Assembly: GCA_945897555.1 (NCBI GenBank)
Contig: CAMDGF010000002.1
Coordinates: forward strand, 70,926-134,925
Direction of reading: 5' to 3'
DNA: 64,000 bases
Origin: Klebsiella pneumoniae
GTDB lineage: Bacteria; Pseudomonadota; Gammaproteobacteria; Burkholderiales; UBA3065
The position numbers were made by a program, and so were the translations under genes. Below the pieces are notes generated by a model that was not told where the DNA came from, did not search any database, and worked only from the letters and a program-made list of their open reading frames with translations. Every line of letters begins with the position of its first letter. Position 1 is the first letter of the stretch. This document shows positions 2,818-13,445 of the stretch, piece after piece.

Positions 2818-3231
2818 TCAGCTGTTCAACTTTTTCCAGGCAAGGCCGAGTTGGGCAAGCAACTGTGCCTCGCTGAATGGCTTGACGAGGTACCCCGATA
2901 CGCCGGCCTGCAAGGCAGCCATCACGTTATCGGTAGAGCGAACACCGGTCACCATGATGAAGGGCAGCTTGGCGAATTTTTCGTTGCTGCGGACTTCTTT
3001 GAGCATCTCAAGACCGGTGTACTGCGGCATCTCCCAGTCCGATAGAACAACATCGACGGGCTCCCCCAGAGCGACGCACTTTTCCAAGAGAGCGATGGCG
3101 GAGGGCACCGTGTCCGCATCCAGCACATTCTTGTAATCGAGCCTGGCCAGCAGGCTCCGGATCAGGATGCGCATCGATGCGACGTCATCGATGATCAAGA
3201 ATCGGGTGTTGGGTGGTGGGGTCATGCTCAT
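2818..3231 (-). CDS. CheY-like single-domain response regulator
   Basis: 137 aa with the receiver residues: LIIDD, VVLSDWEMP (phospho-Asp), FIMVTG and YLVKPF. It is the last gene of the chemosensory operon. Confidence 0.9.
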   Translation of the reverse strand: MSMTPPPNTRFLIIDDVASMRILIRSLLARLDYKNVLDADTVPSAIALLEKCVALGEPVDVVLSDWEMPQYTGLEMLKEVRSNEKFAKLPFIMVTGVRSTDNVMAALQAGVSGYLVKPFSEAQLLAQLGLAWKKLNS

Positions 3232-3254
3232 CGCGGGGCGTCCGGTTTGGCTGG

Positions 3255-4892
3255 TCAGGAGAAGCGTGTGAAAGCCGACTCGTCCATATCCCCATCGCCA
3301 GCGCCCGAAGGCGTACCGGTGGTCTGCTGCCCCGACGGCTGTGTACCGGCAGAGTCAGCTTTGCGTTCGCGCGACCCACGCGACGACTTGCCGAGGTTGA
3401 AGAATCCGACCAAGCCTTGCAGTTGAGTCGCCTGTGCGCTGAGTTCCTGCGATGTCTTGGTGAGCTCCTCAGATGCCGACGCCGACGCATGTGTCGACCG
3501 TGCGACCTCGTGGATGGCTTTGCCGATCTCGCCAAGCCCCAACGATTGCTCGCGCGAGGCAGCTGAGATCTCTTGAACCAGATCGGCAGTCTTGCGACTG
3601 GCGGGCACCATCTCGTCGAGCAGATGACCGGCTCGCTCCGCCATCTCGACGCTGGTGGCGGCGACCTCGCCAATGTCTCGTGCGGCGATGCTCGAACGTT
3701 CGGCCAGCTTGCGGACCTCGGCGGCGACCACCGCGAAGCCCTTGCCATGGTCGCCAGCGCGCGCTGCTTCAATGGCTGCATTCAGCGCCAGCAGATTGGT
3801 CTGATAGGCGATGTCGTCGATGATGCCGATCTTTGCCGCGATCTGGCGCATGGCCGTCACCGTCTCTCTCACGGCTCCGCCCCCATCTTCAGCATCTTTC
3901 GACGAGCGCGAGGCGATCTCGTCGGTGATTCTCGCGTTCTCGGCGTTCTGAGTCACAGTGGCGGTGATCTCCTCGACAGCCGAACTGGTCCTCTCCACCG
4001 AGATGGTCTGCTCGTTGGAGTTGTCGTTCAGCGATTGTGCCGCCGCTGAGAGCTGTTCCGCTGCAGAGGCTACCGAATCCGCTGCGCTCCTGACTTCGGA
4101 CATCACGTCCTGCAGCTTGGCAGCCATCGCCTTGAGGCCCGCCTCCATACTGGTCGAATCACCGGCTTCGACTTCGATGTCTTTGGCAACGGTCAACTTG
4201 CCCTGGGCGATCTGACGTGCCAGATCAGCCATCCATTCCAGTTGCGCTATCAAGCGCCGCTCGATCGTTAGACCGAAGGCCGTGATGATGGCGAACAAGA
4301 CCACGCCGACCACTGCCAACTCAATCAGCGCATTGGATTTGGTCTCCAGTGCCATTTGGGTGGCTTCCTCTGCGATCTGGACGTTGTGGGCGATGTGGTC
4401 ATCCAGATTCTTTGCAAGCTTCTCGGTGAGCGGGACCGCGGAAGTCACGATGTCGAGCGCTTCTTTTCGCTCGTTCGCCCGCGAATGGGCCAGCGCCTCA
4501 TCCACCATCTTTTCGTATTGCTGCAGCAATTCGACGGACGTGTTGAGGTATGCGCGGTCTTGGTCGTTGGCGATCAGCGTTTCATATTTTTTGAGCGATT
4601 TGAGAAGGGTTTCTCTGGAATCTTTGATCATCTTCTCGATCTCGACGGTCGAACGTTCGTCCGTGTTGAGAATCTGTCGGTAGATCTCGAAGCGGTATTG
4701 CCCAAAGCTGCTCGCTGCCTTGTCGAGGGCCACGATGCTTGGCTGGGTGTTGACCGCCACATGGTTGGCCGAGGCAAAGACGCTCTCCATCTGCCATACG
4801 CCCCAGATGCCTACGATGAGGATCGAAGCAGCCGCGGCGGCAATCAAGAGGTAGATCCTTTTGGCCGCGCTTATCGATGTGGTGATGCTCAT
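3255..4892 (-). CDS. methyl-accepting chemotaxis protein (two TM helices, four-helix-bundle-type periplasmic domain, HAMP, signalling domain)
   Basis: Carries the highly conserved hairpin-tip sequence [40 protein letters not shown]1 is [21 protein letters not shown] and TM2 is [27 protein letters not shown] sits 7 nt upstream of the ATG. Confidence 0.95.
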
Positions 4893-4958
4893 TGCGGTGC
4901 TCCTGAATAGGCTGAGTCTGGGGTTCTTAGCGTGCGGTTCGCAGATCGGGTGGGGGCA

Positions 4959-5549
4959 TCAAGCGGCCTCGAGGCCGGTCGGATCTGCGCTCGCGAACAT
5001 GGCGATCAGCGGTTCGAAATCGACAAGCACGATGACTTCGGAGTCCTCGACGTCAAAGGGATCCCGCGGGACACGACCGGTGCCCAAGAGGTAGGGCTCC
5101 GCAGAGATCGATCCGATGACTGGCGGGGGTGCGATCGTATCGGCAGCGATGTCCATGACCTCGTTCACCGAATCGACGATGAATCCGACGCGCCATTGTT
5201 CAGCGCTGCCGATGGCCTCAACGATCAGGATGCAGGTGCGCTTGCTGATGGCGCCGACTGGACGCTTGAGGCAGGAAGCCAGTTCTATCACTGGAACGGC
5301 CGTCTCGCGCAGATCGATGACGCCGCAAAACAAGGGCGGCAGACCGGGGACCGGGACCGGCGGCTGATACTCGATGATCTCGAGGATGGACAGGATGGGC
5401 ACTGCGAAACGCTCGGCACCCAACCTGAAGGTGAGGTATTGGCTGCCAGTGCCAAAATCGACGTCCTCAGCGTGTTCCACGGGGACGCCGGTGTCAGTGG
5501 CCCTTCTCAAGGATAGCCCTAGCCCCATACTTAAAGACGCTCCCCACAA
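4959..5549 (-). CDS. cheW: CheW-like coupling protein (start uncertain: TTG 5549 or ATG 5528)
   Basis: CheW-domain sequence YLTFRLGAERFAVPILSILEIIEY...GVIDLRETAVPVIEL. Confidence 0.85.
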   Translation of the reverse strand: MWGASLSMGLGLSLRRATDTGVPVEHAEDVDFGTGSQYLTFRLGAERFAVPILSILEIIEYQPPVPVPGLPPLFCGVIDLRETAVPVIELASCLKRPVGAISKRTCILIVEAIGSAEQWRVGFIVDSVNEVMDIAADTIAPPPVIGSISAEPYLLGTGRVPRDPFDVEDSEVIVLVDFEPLIAMFASADPTGLEAA

Positions 5550-5585
5550 CCCTGCGCTCGATCAGGACATGAGCGGGAGCCTAAC

Positions 5586-6692
5586 TTAAAGTTTAGAGAT
5601 CTCACCAGCGATTTCTTCGAGGTCGATCTCACGCTCCACTCCGCCCATTCGCATGGCTTCCTTCGGCATGCCGTAGACCACGCAGCTGTCTTCGTTCTGC
5701 CCGACGGTGCGGCCGCCGCTCTCGCGGATGCGCAGCAAGCCGGCTGCGCCGTCGTTGCCCATGCCGGTCATGATCACGCCGAACGAATTGGCTCCCGCAG
5801 CCAGTGCCACGGAGCGGAACATGAAATCCACCGAGGGTCGGTGGCGGTTGACGTAAGGCCCGTCGAGCACATCGACGTAGTAGCGCGTCTCGTCCCGTCT
5901 GACCGCGAGTTGCTTGCCGCCTCTGGCGATGATCGCCCGCCCACCCACCACGTCCATGCCGCTCACCGCTTCGACCACCTCGATGTCGCAGACATCATTG
6001 AGCCTTCTGGCGAAGGCTGCGGTGAAATGTTCGGGCATGTGCTGGACGATGACGAGACCGGGCACCGAGATGGGCAATCGGTGCAGCACCGACTCGAGCG
6101 CTTCGGTCCCGCCGGTCGAGGCGCCGATCGCCACGACCAGGCGAGACCCTGTGCCGATCGATTTGCGCACCGGCGCGGGCGGTACCAAGGGCCGATCGAC
6201 GATGTCTTTGGTATGGGTTGCAGGTGTCGACGTCGGTTGCAGGGGGGGCTGCGGCGTTGCGTCTGGCTGGCGGGGGCGGAAGCGCGCCTGCGATGCGGCC
6301 TTGACCTGGGTGACCAGATCCGCGCCGGCATCCTCAACGAAGTGGTTTCGTAGGTCTTTGGGTTTTCCGATGCATGCGATCGCTCCGACTCTGAGCGCTT
6401 CGAACGTCTCGGCGGCCCCTCGCTGCGACAGCGTCGAACAGATGACCACCGGCGTCGGCCGCTCGGCCATGATCTTGCGCAGGAAGGTCAGGCCATCCAT
6501 GCGCGGCATCTCGATGTCGAGGACTATCACATCGGGCCAATCACGCATCATCTTGTCAATGGCGAACAGGGGGTCCGGTGCCATGCCGATGACTTCGATG
6601 TCAGGGTCGCTGTCGAGGATCTTTTTCACCATCTCCCGCACAACGGCCGAATCATCAACGATGAAGGTCCGGATCTTCTTCATGAGCGCCAT
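5586..6692 (-). CDS. cheB: protein-glutamate methylesterase/deamidase CheB
   Basis: N-terminal receiver (FIVDDS, VIVLDIEMP), a P/T-rich linker, and a C-terminal methylesterase domain with VVAIGASTGGTEAL and VIVQHMPEHFT. Confidence 0.95.
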   Translation of the reverse strand: MALMKKIRTFIVDDSAVVREMVKKILDSDPDIEVIGMAPDPLFAIDKMMRDWPDVIVLDIEMPRMDGLTFLRKIMAERPTPVVICSTLSQRGAAETFEALRVGAIACIGKPKDLRNHFVEDAGADLVTQVKAASQARFRPRQPDATPQPPLQPTSTPATHTKDIVDRPLVPPAPVRKSIGTGSRLVVAIGASTGGTEALESVLHRLPISVPGLVIVQHMPEHFTAAFARRLNDVCDIEVVEAVSGMDVVGGRAIIARGGKQLAVRRDETRYYVDVLDGPYVNRHRPSVDFMFRSVALAAGANSFGVIMTGMGNDGAAGLLRIRESGGRTVGQNEDSCVVYGMPKEAMRMGGVEREIDLEEIAGEISKL

Positions 6693-7513
6693 CTGTAGAC
6701 CGAGGGCGCCACCAAGACGAGTTCGTCATCCATGTCGCGCAGGCTTTCGGAGTGGCTGATGATCAGCCAGCCGTCTGCATCGAGGTGATGGCACACCCTC
6801 CGCACGATCTCGTGCTTCTTCTCGGGTTTGAAATAGATGAGCATATTGCGCAAAAAAATGACGTTGAATTGACCGATGTCTGCGATCGGTGCTGCCAGGT
6901 TCATTCGCTCGAAGTTCACGCTCTGGCGCAACGAACGCTCAACGAGCAGCGTACCGTTGTATTGGCCAGTGCCGCGCAGACAGTAATCCCGCAGATACTG
7001 CTTCGGCATCATGTCGAGACGATCCATGCGGTAGTGGCCCGCTCGCGCCGCCTCGACTACGGATTGACTGATGTCGGTGCCAAAGATTTTCCAATCGAAG
7101 GCCTTGCCGAGCCGATCGGCGAGCACCATGGCGACGCTGTAGGCCTCTTCCCCGGTAGAGCAGGCGGCACTCCATACCCGCAGGGGTTTGCGGCTACGCA
7201 GGAACTCCGGCGCGATGCGGTCACGGAGCAGTTCGAAGTGCGCCGGTTCGCGAAAGAAATAAGTCTCGTTGGTCGTGAGCAGATCGACGAAACGCTGGCG
7301 TTCGGCAAGGTCCTTGCCTGATTCGAGAATCGCGCGGTAGGAACGGAAACTGTCCAGCTGCAGTTCGTTCAGACGCTTGCCAAGACGCGCCATGATCAGG
7401 GATCGACGGCTTTCGTCAAGATAGATGCCCGCCATCTCGCTGATCATTCGCTGGAAGGCCAGAAAGTCTCTTTCCGAAAGATTCTTCTCCCCGACAGCGG
7501 CCCGAATCAGCAC
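6680..7513 (-). CDS. cheR: chemotaxis protein methyltransferase CheR
   Basis: Contains TNETYFFREPAHFE and the SAM-binding sequence LRVWSAACSTGEEAYS. It overlaps cheB by 13 nt. Confidence 0.94.
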   Translation of the reverse strand: MLIRAAVGEKNLSERDFLAFQRMISEMAGIYLDESRRSLIMARLGKRLNELQLDSFRSYRAILESGKDLAERQRFVDLLTTNETYFFREPAHFELLRDRIAPEFLRSRKPLRVWSAACSTGEEAYSVAMVLADRLGKAFDWKIFGTDISQSVVEAARAGHYRMDRLDMMPKQYLRDYCLRGTGQYNGTLLVERSLRQSVNFERMNLAAPIADIGQFNVIFLRNMLIYFKPEKKHEIVRRVCHHLDADGWLIISHSESLRDMDDELVLVAPSVYRWRS

Positions 7514-8040
7514 TCACCCCCATTACCAAGGCTGCTCAGCGGCGCATTGACGCTCGCGAGTGATGCCATCTCATCGATCGACAGCACTCTTTCGATGTTC
7601 ACCAAGATAATGAATGAGCTGCCCAGTCGCGCCATGCCGGCGATGAACTCAGCGCGCATGCAAGCGCCGAATGCGGGTGCTGGTTCGATCTCGGAGCGAC
7701 CCACGTCGATGACTTCGCTGACACTGTCGACGACCATACCGACGTCTGCGTTCCCGCCCTCAAAGCCGATCTCAACCATGACGATGCAGGTGCGCTTTTG
7801 CGGTGGGGTGGGTTCTTTGCCGAGTCGCAGGGCCAGGTTGATGACGGGCACGACATGGCCGCGCAGGTTGATGACGCCTTCGATGAAGCGCGGCATCTGG
7901 GGGACGCTGGTCAGTTGTTTGTACTCGACGATCTCTTTGACGCACAGGATGTTGAGGCCGAAGGACTCCTCATTCAGGCTGAAAGTGAGGTACTGGCCCT
8001 GTTCTGCCAGAAATTCGCGGGCCTCTGCCTTCCGGTTCAC
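7507..8040 (-). CDS. cheW: CheW coupling protein
   Basis: 177 aa with QYLTFSLNEESFGLNILCVKEIVEY...GVINLRGHVVPVINL. The ATGA overlap with the cheA stop indicates translational coupling. Confidence 0.93.
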   Translation of the reverse strand: MNRKAEAREFLAEQGQYLTFSLNEESFGLNILCVKEIVEYKQLTSVPQMPRFIEGVINLRGHVVPVINLALRLGKEPTPPQKRTCIVMVEIGFEGGNADVGMVVDSVSEVIDVGRSEIEPAPAFGACMRAEFIAGMARLGSSFIILVNIERVLSIDEMASLASVNAPLSSLGNGGEC

Positions 8041-10244
8041 AGGGCCGACCTTTCGACCCGACCTGATTCGTACTGCTCGATACGGGCCGCGAGGTCGATG
8101 AGGGCCGGAACGTCCAGGATGAGCGCGACTTCGCCACTGCCGAGGATGGTCGAGCCCGATATGCCCCTGAGCGTCTCAAACAGGGGCCCAAGGGGTTTGA
8201 TGACGGTCTGGAAATCCCCGACCAGATCGTCCACCACCAATCCGGCTACACGGCCCCCGTAGTTGACCACGACGATGTTCTCGCGAAGTTCGGCTGCGTC
8301 CTCTTTTTCGAACACTTCTCGCAGGCGCACGAAAGGCAGCACTTTGCCGCGAAGATTGAGATAGTTACGGCCCGACGCGGTCTCGATGTCGTCGCGACGC
8401 AGTTCAAGGCACTCGACGATCATGTTGAGGGGGATGACGAACGCATCTCCGCCGACGTTCACCACAAAGCCATCGATGATGGCGAGGGTCAGCGGCAGGC
8501 GGATCCGGGTGATGGTGCCCACCCCGACCTCGCTTTCGATGTCGATGGTGCCGCGCAGGCTCAGGATGTTCTGTTTGACAACATCCATCCCGACACCGCG
8601 CCCGGAGATGTTGGTGATGGTGTCGGCAGTGGAAAAGCCGGGCTCGAAGATCAAGTTGTTGATTTCGCGAGAGGTCAACGCAGCGTTGGCGGTGATCAGT
8701 CCCCGCTCTACCGCCTTGGCACGGATCCTTTCGGGGTTGAGGCCGCCGCCATCGTCAGCGACCTCGATGACGATGCTGCCAGACTCGTGGTAAGCATGCA
8801 GTTGCAGGCGGCCGATCGGCGACTTGCCCGCGGCGATGCGCTTCTCACGCGTCTCCAGACCGTGGTCGAGCGAATTGCGGACCAGGTGGGTGAGCGGGTC
8901 GGAGATCTTCTCCACCACCGATTTATCAAGCTCGGTCTCGGCGCCGCTGATGTGCAACTCCACATCCTTGCCAAGTTCTGCACTGAGGTCGCGCACCACG
9001 CGCTGAAAGCGCGTGAAGGTGGCGCCGATCTGCACCATGCGCAGATTGAGGGCGGTGTCCCGCAGTGATTCGACGAGGCCGGTCACGTTCGACATGGCTT
9101 CACGCAATTCGGCGTTGCGGAGGCGTTGGGCGATGAGTGAACTGTAGGCACCCGCGATGACCAGCTCGCCGATCAGGTTGATGAGCTGATCGAGTTTGTC
9201 CGCCTCGACGCGCAAGAAGCGCGACTCTCCCGACCGGCCTTCTGTGGCTTTTGCACCCGGTGCACCCTTCTCCGTGCGTTCCGCGGCCACGGCGGCGTTG
9301 TCAGGCGAGGCCTCGACGGAGGGTGTCGATGCCGGTTCTTCGATCGGCCCGGCGGGTGCGGCCGTTGCGGTGGCGACCATCGGGTCAGGTTCTGCAACAG
9401 CTTGCTCGACAGCCGCTGCCTTGCCAGCGGGCGGAAAGCGTCGAGCCTCCGTGAGCCAGGCGGTAGAGCAGGGCTCGACAGTGACTTGGCACTGGTCTGC
9501 GATAAAGTCGAACACGCTGCGGATGGAGGCTTCGTCGACGCCACCGGACATCACCAGTTCCGTGGCGATGTAGCAGGTCTCGGGGTCGAAGTTGTCGGGC
9601 GAGCCCGGCTCGACGAGTTCGCTGCGGATCCAGTTCACCGTCCCTTTGGTCGCGAGAAAACGCATGAATGCGAGGGGGTCCATGCCCTCGCGCATCACGT
9701 TGGGGCCAAAGTGCACGCGCACGTGCCAGCCGTCCAACTCATACGCAGCGCTTTCGTCGCCGCTGGGTGCAGCACTGTCGGTGTTGTCGGTTGCAACGAG
9801 CGCATCGCTTGCGGTCGCAGCTTTGGCAGCGGCACGACGCGCCACCGCCTCGTCGCCGCCGACGAAAGACATCAGCGCCTCGATCAAGGCTTTTTCGTGT
9901 TCGGCCTCTTCGTTGCTGCGGGTGCCGGTGCCCAAGCCTTGAGCCACCAGCAAGCCCATGTGATCGGTGCAGCGTAGGATCAGCGTCACGAGGTCTGGGG
10001 TGACGGTGAGCTTTCCCTTGCGGGCATCGTCCATCACGCTTTCGACGTGATGGGTGAAAGCGACCACCCCCTCAAGTCCGAACATCCCGGCGGTGCCCTT
10101 GATCGTATGGGCGGCGCGGAAGATGGCGTTGATGAGGTCGCTGTTGCTGCCGTTGGCTTCGATCTCGAGCAGGCTGCGCTCCATCTCCGCGAGCATCTCG
10201 CGGGATTCCTCCTCGAAAGCGGCGAGTGCGGGATCTGTGCTCAT
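8037..10244 (-). CDS. cheA: chemotaxis histidine kinase CheA
   Basis: Hpt site AAHTIKGTAGMFG, a P2-like segment, and a dimerisation region. The kinase core has HLVRNSLDHGLE, EVADDGGGL and GRGVGMDVV. A C-terminal CheW-like domain is present. Confidence 0.96.
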   Translation of the reverse strand: MSTDPALAAFEEESREMLAEMERSLLEIEANGSNSDLINAIFRAAHTIKGTAGMFGLEGVVAFTHHVESVMDDARKGKLTVTPDLVTLILRCTDHMGLLVAQGLGTGTRSNEEAEHEKALIEALMSFVGGDEAVARRAAAKAATASDALVATDNTDSAAPSGDESAAYELDGWHVRVHFGPNVMREGMDPLAFMRFLATKGTVNWIRSELVEPGSPDNFDPETCYIATELVMSGGVDEASIRSVFDFIADQCQVTVEPCSTAWLTEARRFPPAGKAAAVEQAVAEPDPMVATATAAPAGPIEEPASTPSVEASPDNAAVAAERTEKGAPGAKATEGRSGESRFLRVEADKLDQLINLIGELVIAGAYSSLIAQRLRNAELREAMSNVTGLVESLRDTALNLRMVQIGATFTRFQRVVRDLSAELGKDVELHISGAETELDKSVVEKISDPLTHLVRNSLDHGLETREKRIAAGKSPIGRLQLHAYHESGSIVIEVADDGGGLNPERIRAKAVERGLITANAALTSREINNLIFEPGFSTADTITNISGRGVGMDVVKQNILSLRGTIDIESEVGVGTITRIRLPLTLAIIDGFVVNVGGDAFVIPLNMIVECLELRRDDIETASGRNYLNLRGKVLPFVRLREVFEKEDAAELRENIVVVNYGGRVAGLVVDDLVGDFQTVIKPLGPLFETLRGISGSTILGSGEVALILDVPALIDLAARIEQYESGRVERSAL

Positions 10245-10537
10245 CCAGCCTCTTCGAGCAAGAATCCGAGACCCATGGTCACCAGCGCATCTGCGATGGC
10301 CGGCTTGGATCCGGTCAGGCGCACGCTGCGATCCTGTTGTTCTGAAAAGGTCTTGGCCGCGAGCAACAGTTGGACGCCGGCGCCATCGAACTCCTCGACC
10401 TCTTCGAGACGGATCAAGATGTCGCGACCTTCAGCCAAAGCAGTCAGCAAGTCTGATCGCAGCTCGCTCACGCCATAGATGTTGACGAGTGTCGGCAGCT
10501 TCCAGAGTGTTTGTTCAGGCCCGGTTTCGACCGCCAT
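10241..10537 (-). CDS. STAS-domain protein (anti-sigma-antagonist fold), chemosensory-cluster associated
   Basis: 98 aa. The segment ILIRLEEVEEFDGAGVQLLLAA aligns to the SpoIIAA ...FMDSSGLGVIL segment. The gene sits 1 nt after the cheY stop and overlaps the cheA start by 4 nt. Confidence 0.75.
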   Translation of the reverse strand: MAVETGPEQTLWKLPTLVNIYGVSELRSDLLTALAEGRDILIRLEEVEEFDGAGVQLLLAAKTFSEQQDRSVRLTGSKPAIADALVTMGLGFLLEEAG

Positions 10538-10538
10538 T

Positions 10539-10913
10539 TCAAGCCCTCGAGCAGGTCAGTAAGGCGACGGCTGAAAGCAGCGCATCGGGCTTGAAAGGCT
10601 TCACCATCCAGACGTTAACGCCCCGACGCTTTCCTTCCATCCTAACCTCATCCGAAGATTCTGTGGTGATCATGGCGATCGGCGTAAAACGGTAGCCGGG
10701 GCTCGCGCGGACGTGGCTGACGAATGTGAGTCCATCCATGATCGGCATGTTCACATCGCTGACGATGAAATCGATGCGCCGCCCATCGAGCAACTTCACG
10801 GCGGTCTCACCATCGTCGGCTTCGAGAACCTCATAGCCGGCGCGGCTGAGGGCGATGCGGATCACTGCTCGCATCGAGCTGGAGTCGTCGACAACGAGGA
10901 TGGTCAGTGCCAT
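10539..10913 (-). CDS. cheY: CheY response regulator
   Basis: 124 aa with LVVDDSSSMR, FIVSDVNMPIMDG, AMITTES and WMVKPF. Confidence 0.93.
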   Translation of the reverse strand: MALTILVVDDSSSMRAVIRIALSRAGYEVLEADDGETAVKLLDGRRIDFIVSDVNMPIMDGLTFVSHVRASPGYRFTPIAMITTESSDEVRMEGKRRGVNVWMVKPFKPDALLSAVALLTCSRA

Positions 10914-10925
10914 GCCGGGGCCCTC

Positions 10926-11339
10926 TCAACCGGCACTGCGCTGGCCGAGATGCCTTTCGATGAGTTTCGCGACCTCGGCGACGAGCTCGGGCTGGACCGA
11001 CTGAGAGCGGCGGGCAAGGTCGACCATCAGCGCCTCGTCGCTTTGCTTGTCAGAGTCCGACCCGGCCACAGTGGCTGCGGCGACCATGTGGCGAGCCAGT
11101 TGCAGAGTCTGGCTGATGCGATCTTGCGCTTGCAAGGCATCGAGCATGGTGTCGACGGAGGCCTGAAGCCGATCTTGAGCGGCCGTGGAGAGGCCGCTGG
11201 CATTGAGTTCAGGTGCCACGGCAAGCTCGGTCGCGATGCGCTCAGCGGCGTCGTTACCCAACGCTTGGGCGGCGGCGAGGTGCAGGTCGACAAGCTTGAG
11301 CAAGACCCCGAGCCTCTGTGCTCGCGTTGCTTCCAACAC
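10926..11339 (-). CDS. hypothetical helical protein with QDxxxQ motif (possible minimal CheZ-like phosphatase)
   Basis: 137 aa and the first gene of the chemosensory operon. Start is GTG, or the adjacent TTG, after GGGAGG. Residues 71-79 (AQDRISQTL) resemble the E. coli CheZ active-site segment FQDLTGQVI. No other family was recognised. Confidence 0.55.
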   Translation of the reverse strand: MLEATRAQRLGVLLKLVDLHLAAAQALGNDAAERIATELAVAPELNASGLSTAAQDRLQASVDTMLDALQAQDRISQTLQLARHMVAAATVAGSDSDKQSDEALMVDLARRSQSVQPELVAEVAKLIERHLGQRSAG

Positions 11340-11404
11340 CTACCTCCCGGCGTATCCAACCGATGTATCGGTGGAGTCTACCCCAGAGATCCACGGCGCA
11401 TGGG

Positions 11405-11483
<79 letters not shown>

Positions 11484-11501
11484 GTGTCGCGATGCTACCG
11501 C

Positions 11502-11531
11502 GCCCGACCAGGCTGGCGCCTGGCGTCGGGC
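11502..11531 (-). terminator. GC-rich hairpin immediately after the rpoD stop codon
   Basis: GCCCGA-CCAGGC-TGGC-GCCTGG-(CG)-TCGGGC forms 6+6 bp with a 2-nt bulge. There is no U-tract. The tRNA starts 18 nt downstream, so this may be a processing or stability element rather than a full terminator. Confidence 0.4.

Positions 11532-13445
<1,914 letters not shown>

Follow-up and report, generated by a model that had tools for sequence, protein, structure and literature searches.

A short helical protein at the head of a betaproteobacterial chemotaxis operon as a candidate DxxxQ CheY-P phosphatase outside the CheZ family

The window, i.e., the whole stretch of 64,000 nucleotides analysed here, carries a chemotaxis operon encoded on the minus strand in the order ORF-CheY-STAS-CheA-CheW-CheR-CheB-CheW-MCP-RR, where most of the gene junctions overlap (Table 1). 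The ORF under study opens this operon. It exists at the position given in a preliminary description of this DNA, which did not indicate a strand (it is the minus strand), and it encodes 137 amino acids from a GTG codon at 11339 to a TGA stop at 10928-10926 in the list of ORFs. Since a tRNA-Met gene and rpoD are found upstream, no protein gene of the operon precedes the ORF, as had been described. The placement of cheY directly downstream was also accurate: 12 nt separate the stop codon of the ORF from the start codon of cheY, which is in the same frame. The che operon opened by the ORF is tightly coupled, and the ORF is translationally close-coupled to cheY.

Public gene callers choose an alternative start for the ORF, the TTG at 11336, one codon later, which results in a protein of 136 amino acids. 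This exact product is already public as MEY3974760.1 ("MAG: hypothetical protein, Pseudomonadota bacterium"). We number residues from the GTG start throughout, and all numbers must be decreased by one if TTG is the true start. Pairwise comparisons with five relatives gave dN/dS values of 0.20-0.32 at dS of 0.6-1.7, showing that purifying selection acts on the reading frame. The ORF is a real, selected gene.

Table 1. Features of the che operon, of the ORF and of the DNA around them (window coordinates).
Feature	Position	Strand	Basis and remarks
tRNA-Met(CAT), directly upstream of the ORF	11405..11483	minus	
TAGACT, hexamer resembling a -10 element, in the tRNA-Met/ORF spacer	11375..11380	minus	sequence; lead only
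Shine-Dalgarno GGGAGG	11343..11348	minus	sequence; 3 nt ahead of GTG, 6 nt ahead of TTG
ORF, 137 aa	10926..11339	minus	ORF list
ORF codons 13-28, LLKLVDLHLAAAQALG, helix-1 block	11256..11303	minus	family alignment
ORF codons 69-81, LQAQDRISQTLQL, AxxxQDxxxQ motif	11097..11135	minus	family alignments
ORF codons 110-117, RRSQSVQP, at the helix 3 kink	10989..11012	minus	alignments, AF2
CheY, 124 aa	10539..10913	minus	Pfam, NCBIfam, sequence comparison
STAS-only protein, 98 aa, PF13466	10241..10537	minus	Pfam
CheA, 735 aa: Hpt, dimerisation, HATPase_c and CheW-like domains	8037..10244	minus	Pfam
CheW	7507-8040	minus	Pfam
CheR	6680-7513	minus	Pfam
CheB	5586-6692	minus	Pfam
Second CheW	4959-5549	minus	Pfam
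MCP	3255-4892	minus	Pfam
Second single-domain receiver, 137 aa, last operon gene	2818-3231	minus	Pfam

The CheY encoded next to the ORF is 39% identical to CheY1 of Sinorhizobium meliloti and 28% identical to CheY2, and has the "TTES" segment in common with CheY1. It carries N at D+2 and E at T+2, like the CheY of Escherichia coli. The second receiver, at the other end of the operon, is overall closer to E. coli CheY (35%); it shows an insertion after strand 2-3 (KCVAL) and no recognisable T+2/E pattern (VTGVRST). Together, the two proteins give the operon a two-CheY layout, as found in S. meliloti. The CheA has no Pfam P2 (CheY-binding) domain between its Hpt and dimerisation domains (residues ~100-340, window 8700-9600), and this region is partly rich in alanine and proline.

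The preliminary description had stated that the pathway has no CheZ, CheC or CheX, and our searches agree with it. Unfiltered searches (--max) of all six-frame ORFs of the window with our own CheZ and CheT HMMs identified neither protein. CheC, CheX and CheD are missing among the genes of the operon, where the Pfam domains leave no room for CheC or CheX.

The family of the ORF is very small and stems from uncultured bacteria. It consists of around nine clusters among billions of proteins, all of them from metagenomes and from metagenome-assembled genomes (MAGs) of Betaproteobacteria or Pseudomonadota. An exhaustive phmmer search of 1.84 billion representative proteins identified five true relatives; another match (P0006) was a spurious repeat protein and was discarded. 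Three further relatives were found by a profile search of 5.8 billion clusters. A motif-pattern scan that covered 185,579 species, each represented by one genome, retrieved two loci, both in MAGs of Betaproteobacteria. All sources label the members of the family as hypothetical, with the exception of two near-identical proteins of one cluster in JGI/IMG (P0141 and P0145, cluster P0009). These are labelled "transposase InsO family protein", evidently wrongly, because they lack such a domain.

The genetic neighbourhood of the family is strongly conserved. The order ORF-CheY-STAS was found in nine loci (L001-L003, L010, L012, L014-L017), followed by CheA wherever the contig extends far enough; of two further loci, L013 shows only ORF-CheY and L011 ends at the ORF. 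The order rpoD, tRNA-Met, ORF is also found in most relatives (L001, L010, L014, L015-L017). In the clade that diverges most (L003, L012, L013), a gene encoding a PAS-PAS-SpoIIE protein (a PP2C phosphatase) takes the place of rpoD and the tRNA gene; it immediately precedes the ORF and has the same orientation (positions 74-1603 in L003). The closest annotated che cluster is on plasmid p1 of Aeromonas sp. BC14, with a CheA 47.5% identical to that of the window, and is organised as MCP-RR-STAS-CheA-MCP-CheW-MCP-CheR-CheD-CheB. This cluster has no counterpart of the ORF and no CheT-like small gene. Hence, the ORF seems to be an addition, specific to its lineage, to a cluster of the CheY-STAS-CheA type.

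Although the most distant members of the family are down to 31-37% sequence identity, three blocks stay fixed, one in each predicted helix. The block of helix 2 (LQxQDRxxQTLxL) is the best conserved stretch of the protein, with eight invariant residues (Q70, Q72, D73, R74, Q77, T78, L79, L81). The invariant residues of the other two blocks are L13, H20, A24 and G28 in helix 1, and R110, R111, S112, Q116 and P117 in helix 3. The preliminary description had read residues 71-79 correctly as AQDRISQTL, and had likened D73 and Q77 (nt 11123-11121 and 11111-11109 of the minus strand) to the catalytic pair of CheZ, with the suggestion that the protein could be a minimal CheY-P phosphatase or else an unrelated helical protein. 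Both residues are invariant in all relatives and lie within the best conserved block.

We estimated how often such motifs arise by chance. The bare DxxxQ is common, at ~0.3-0.4 occurrences per 137 amino acids of the ORFs of the window. QDxxxQ is found at ~0.01-0.016 per 137 amino acids of the same ORFs, and ~0.07 would be expected from the composition of the ORF itself. At these rates, a single occurrence of QDxxxQ is weak evidence, and so short a motif does not on its own establish an active site. What places QDxxxQ above chance is that it is invariant in spite of the divergence of the family to 31-37% identity.

The AF2 model of the monomer, built from an alignment of eight sequences, is of low confidence (mean pLDDT 63) and predicts three helices (residues 2-40, 52-91, and 101-136). 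Hydrophobic-moment analysis of the family placed Q70, D73, R74, Q77 and L81 on the side of helix 2 that points away from its hydrophobic face. Q70, D73/R74, Q77 and L81 would thereby form an exposed stripe in the middle of this helix, as expected for a functional surface. From a simple hairpin register, rather than from model coordinates, the RRSQSVQP block should be adjacent to helix 2 residues 75-82, and the three conserved blocks should be found at one level of the bundle.

The stretch QTLQLARHMVAAATVAG...DLARRS resembles by eye the MCP stretch ...KLAERS, with a spacing of 35 versus 36 residues. The best local match given by hhalign is in the same register, and the gene preceding cheY in the Aeromonas p1 cluster encodes a soluble MCP. 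These likenesses would fit a degenerate fragment of the MCP signalling hairpin, a "tip-only" mini-receptor plugging into CheA/CheW arrays. We find such an origin very improbable given that the hhalign probability is 0.55% (P=0.11), that Pfam MCPsignal did not match the protein, and that the z-scores relative to shuffled sequences average 0.4. Furthermore, the would-be tip loop is the most variable part of the ORF family, whereas real MCPs conserve this loop more than any other part.

The invariant H20 of the first block, which lies in a helix, is compatible with an Hpt-like protein that uses this histidine for phosphotransfer in an operon with three receiver domains. This reading is hardly credible. 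The histidine lacks the HxxKG context, there was no match to Pfam Hpt, and hhalign gave a probability of 0.45% against eight CheA P1 domains. In addition, the CheA of the operon already has an Hpt domain.

We then compared the ORF product with CheZ (PF04344; E. coli protein, PDB 1KMI). The extended motif of CheZ is AxxFQDxxxQ, and the Q that precedes the D is the best conserved residue of CheZ (PMC7750401). The segment A138-Q-D-F-Q142-D143-L-T-G-Q147 of the E. coli protein corresponds to A68-L-Q-A-Q72-D73-R-I-S-Q77 in the ORF product, which thus matches four of the five fixed positions (A, Q, D, Q), the F being replaced by A or N. The ORF product is predicted to be all-helical, like CheZ; both have an invariant QDxxxQ, and both are encoded next to cheY. 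The motif residues are predicted to be on an exposed helix face in the ORF product. As previously described, the protein is far shorter than CheZ (137 versus 214 amino acids), and it is devoid of the N-terminal region of the latter. Its motif is located ~24 residues past the helix turn, compared with ~50 in CheZ, and its gene is upstream of cheY, whereas cheZ is downstream.

The alignment of the family reveals no conserved amphipathic peptide for CheY binding at the C-terminus. The final 8-10 residues differ from one relative to another (GQRSAG, DQQGSA, GGDVS, AGPAPE), and because this C-terminus is not conserved there is no CheZ-like tether, which supports the earlier observation that a CheY-tethering peptide is not apparent.

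The likeness to CheZ does not extend to profile similarity. The CheZ profiles of Pfam (PF04344, E≤10, six members) and NCBIfam (NF008368, E≤1) matched no member of the family, even though both recognised the E. coli CheZ used as a control (6e-77 and 2e-109). The phmmer and hmmsearch results against the PDB for the ORF and its family did not include CheZ, and the searches of Pfam, NCBIfam and PDB returned only noise (GAT domain, DUF5805; E-values of 0.02-0.1). The alignment of the family with five CheZ sequences by hhalign gave a probability of 0.2%, and our own CheZ HMM scored near 1 bit in unfiltered searches (--max). Smith-Waterman scores relative to shuffled sequences gave mean z-scores of 0.4-1.1. 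We found one outlier, the CheZ of Ralstonia (z of 4.8), where the QDLTGQ of CheZ was aligned with RRSQSVQ of helix 3 and not with QDRISQ; it was not reproduced with the four other CheZ and is attributable to chance. By these comparisons, the ORF product is not a member of the CheZ family.

CheZ is a long helical hairpin that dimerises into a four-helix bundle, but structural searches were uninformative. Foldseek matched the pLDDT-63 model of the ORF product to generic helical proteins of the PDB, with no CheZ among them. This test lacks discriminating power, because a search with the model of CheT (pLDDT 79), used as a control, also fails to find CheZ. Run both locally and globally, hhalign never exceeded a probability of 1% for the family against CheZ, CheT, CheA P1 or the MCP signalling tips. 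The hhalign alignments are shallow and cannot link even proteins of known functional relation, such as CheT and CheZ. Since the comparison of CheT with CheZ is equally blank, both by hhalign and by Foldseek with the CheT model, the negative results obtained for the ORF with profiles and structures say little about its function. The CheZ-like idea of the preliminary description fails as a statement of family membership, and is plausible as a functional hypothesis for which CheT provides the precedent.

CheT of S. meliloti is described in a review of the Agrobacterium system, in the part that summarises Agbekudzi et al. 2024, as a DxxxQ-carrying protein with no significant homology to known chemotaxis proteins and with an AlphaFold model that resembles CheZ (PMC12654446). 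According to the same summary, it binds CheR and accelerates the dephosphorylation of only one of two CheY-P species, CheY1-P (PMC12654446). We found that CheT has 124 amino acids and no Pfam match, with predicted helices at residues 14-40, 46-74 and 85-102, and with D57-Q61 in the middle of helix 2 (pLDDT 79). The ORF product is likewise a small protein with no Pfam domain, three predicted helices and a DxxxQ in the middle of the second. The two motif segments, VLQGIDLAVQ in CheT and ALQAQDRISQ in the ORF, have in common L at -4, Q at -3, a small residue at -2, the D itself, and Q at +4, and a [DE]-L-H segment is found on helix 1 of both proteins. Both operons include a STAS-only protein and a CheY1-type receiver, and neither protein can be aligned to CheZ. 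CheT (NCBIfam NF047973) is, by analogy, the closest putative functional analogue of the ORF product.

We found no similarity between CheT and the ORF product by BLASTP, HMM or hhalign (probability of 1%), and the NF047973 profile, which matches the CheT control at 1.6e-67, does not match the ORF. The ORF family lacks the C-terminal GDFxxF, which is invariant in 32 CheT sequences. The gene of CheT follows cheD and closes its operon, whereas the ORF opens the che operon of the window. The members of CheT that we found are from rhizobial Alphaproteobacteria (Sinorhizobium, Ensifer, Rhizobium, Shinella) and the ORF is betaproteobacterial.

Several other phosphatases of aspartyl-phosphate are helical and insert an amide or acid side chain, e.g., Spo0E with its "SQELD", Rap with Q47, and the HisKA_3 domain of NarX with DxxxQ. 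What the ORF would have in common with them is the principle that a helix offers D/Q residues to the active site of a receiver. Its S76-Q-T-L-[Q/D/E]80 loosely recalls the SQELD of Spo0E, which we take to be a likeness in motif shape only. The Pfam profiles SpoOE-like and HisKA_3 did not match the ORF family at E≤10.

The STAS-only protein encoded two genes downstream of the ORF has an analogue in S. meliloti. The operon of CheT includes the gene of CheS, which is likewise a STAS-only protein and which binds both CheA and CheY1 (PMC8429497). The STAS protein of the window and CheS both belong to PF13466, and both are encoded beside CheA and a CheY1-like receiver. They show no pairwise BLAST similarity, and the gene order differs (CheY-STAS-CheA in the window, CheS-CheY1-CheA in S. 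meliloti).

STAS proteins are also part of partner-switching systems, and the ORF could encode an anti-sigma-like or target protein bound by STAS, linking chemosensing to gene expression. The STAS-only gene is indeed always two genes downstream of the ORF, and the PP2C-encoding gene of the divergent clade (L003, L012, L013) would be at home in such a system. Yet, all the family-linked STAS proteins, including those of the PP2C-linked clade, have FDGAG at the position of the phosphorylated serine of SpoIIAA (MDSSG). We found FDGAG in the window and in L001-L003, L010, L012, L014 and L015; the Aeromonas homologue keeps the serine (MDSAG). Serine phosphorylation is probably not how these STAS proteins are regulated. 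Moreover, we found no match to Pfam profiles of FlgM, anti-sigma factors or kinases, and no gene for a sigma factor in the operon. The example of CheS shows that a STAS protein of a che operon can act on CheA and CheY1 (PMC8429497). We therefore regard partner switching as quite unlikely.

The ORF product might instead be an accessory protein without catalytic activity, i.e., an adaptor of the CheA-STAS-CheY module that contributes to docking or specificity, like CheS, or to localisation. The conserved stripe would then be a protein-binding surface. Strict synteny with the genes of CheY, STAS and CheA is in line with this explanation, as is the lack of detectable homology to any phosphatase, and three conserved blocks that should converge at one level of the bundle fit any binding surface. 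Small helical proteins of che operons with non-catalytic roles are known, such as CheS (PMC8429497). This explanation does not account for the exact invariance of Q-D-x-x-x-Q together with the preceding A/Q pattern of CheZ, and the operon already encodes a CheS-like STAS protein. We consider it possible, on the doubtful side. Even if the ORF product is not a phosphatase, it is a strictly syntenic and unannotated part of the CheY-STAS-CheA module.

We favour the phosphatase reading because QDxxxQ is invariant, because the ORF-CheY-STAS(-CheA) synteny is conserved, because CheT provides a precedent, and because the window lacks CheZ and CheT. Conservation and synteny come from the alignments and loci described above; together with the predicted exposure of the motif they lead us to infer, by analogy, a catalytic role. 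We propose tentatively, with a confidence slightly short of even, that the ORF encodes a minimal auxiliary DxxxQ phosphatase of CheY-P, acting on the adjacent downstream CheY. Judging by analogy from D143/Q147 of CheZ and from the CheT DxxxQ, the partner of D73 would be the conserved lysine of CheY (K105 here), and Q77 would enter the active site of CheY, where it would position the hydrolytic water. The docking surface would be completed by the RRSxxxQP block of helix 3 and by the block of helix 1 around H20, which could replace the missing C-terminal tether. Joined by the CheY1-like receiver and by the STAS protein of the CheS type, the ORF product would make up a module for signal termination (a phosphate sink) in a pathway devoid of CheZ, CheC and CheX.

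If this mechanism is right, the protein is a DxxxQ phosphatase that has either diverged to an extreme degree or evolved independently. The family might then be the third sequence family of DxxxQ phosphatases of CheY-P, after CheZ and CheT. It would be characterised by a tether-less protein of 137 amino acids, by composite docking through three helices (the H20 block, QDRxSQTL, and RRSxxxQP), and by a role in a phosphate-sink module of CheY1-like receiver, STAS and CheA in freshwater-type Betaproteobacteria. We advance this broader claim with some reserve, as a possibility that falls below the even mark. If true, it would imply that, on at least three occasions, the helix-borne D...Q solution was either invented anew or changed so far that it can no longer be recognised.

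Among the steps of bacterial chemotaxis, signal termination is the one least conserved, and in many pathways no phosphatase of CheY-P can be recognised. Should the ORF family have this activity, helical DxxxQ phosphatases would be a recurrent design class that is missed by homology-based annotation, as CheT was until 2024. The family would, in addition, link proteins of this kind with che clusters containing STAS (CheS-like) proteins outside Alphaproteobacteria, and provide a very small, tether-less model for the study of how a helix catalyses the dephosphorylation of a receiver.

Some features of the DNA around the operon deserve mention. A consensus scan of positions 10800-11600 revealed no sigma-70 promoter and no terminator. 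The short spacer between the tRNA and the ORF of the relatives always includes TAGACT or TACACT, a possible -10 element. In the window, this spacer (11340-11404) also contains the palindrome CCGATACATCGG at 11371-11360. We found no direct repeats flanking the che operon. A tRNA gene of the same strand stands on either side of the operon (2818-11339, minus strand), namely tRNA-Met(CAT) at 11405-11483 and tRNA-Ser(GGA) at 2588-2680. The G+C content of the operon is 0.60-0.61, compared with 0.68-0.70 for the housekeeping genes located from 13.5 kb on. Given this bracketing and the lower G+C content, the che operon could be a horizontally acquired island.
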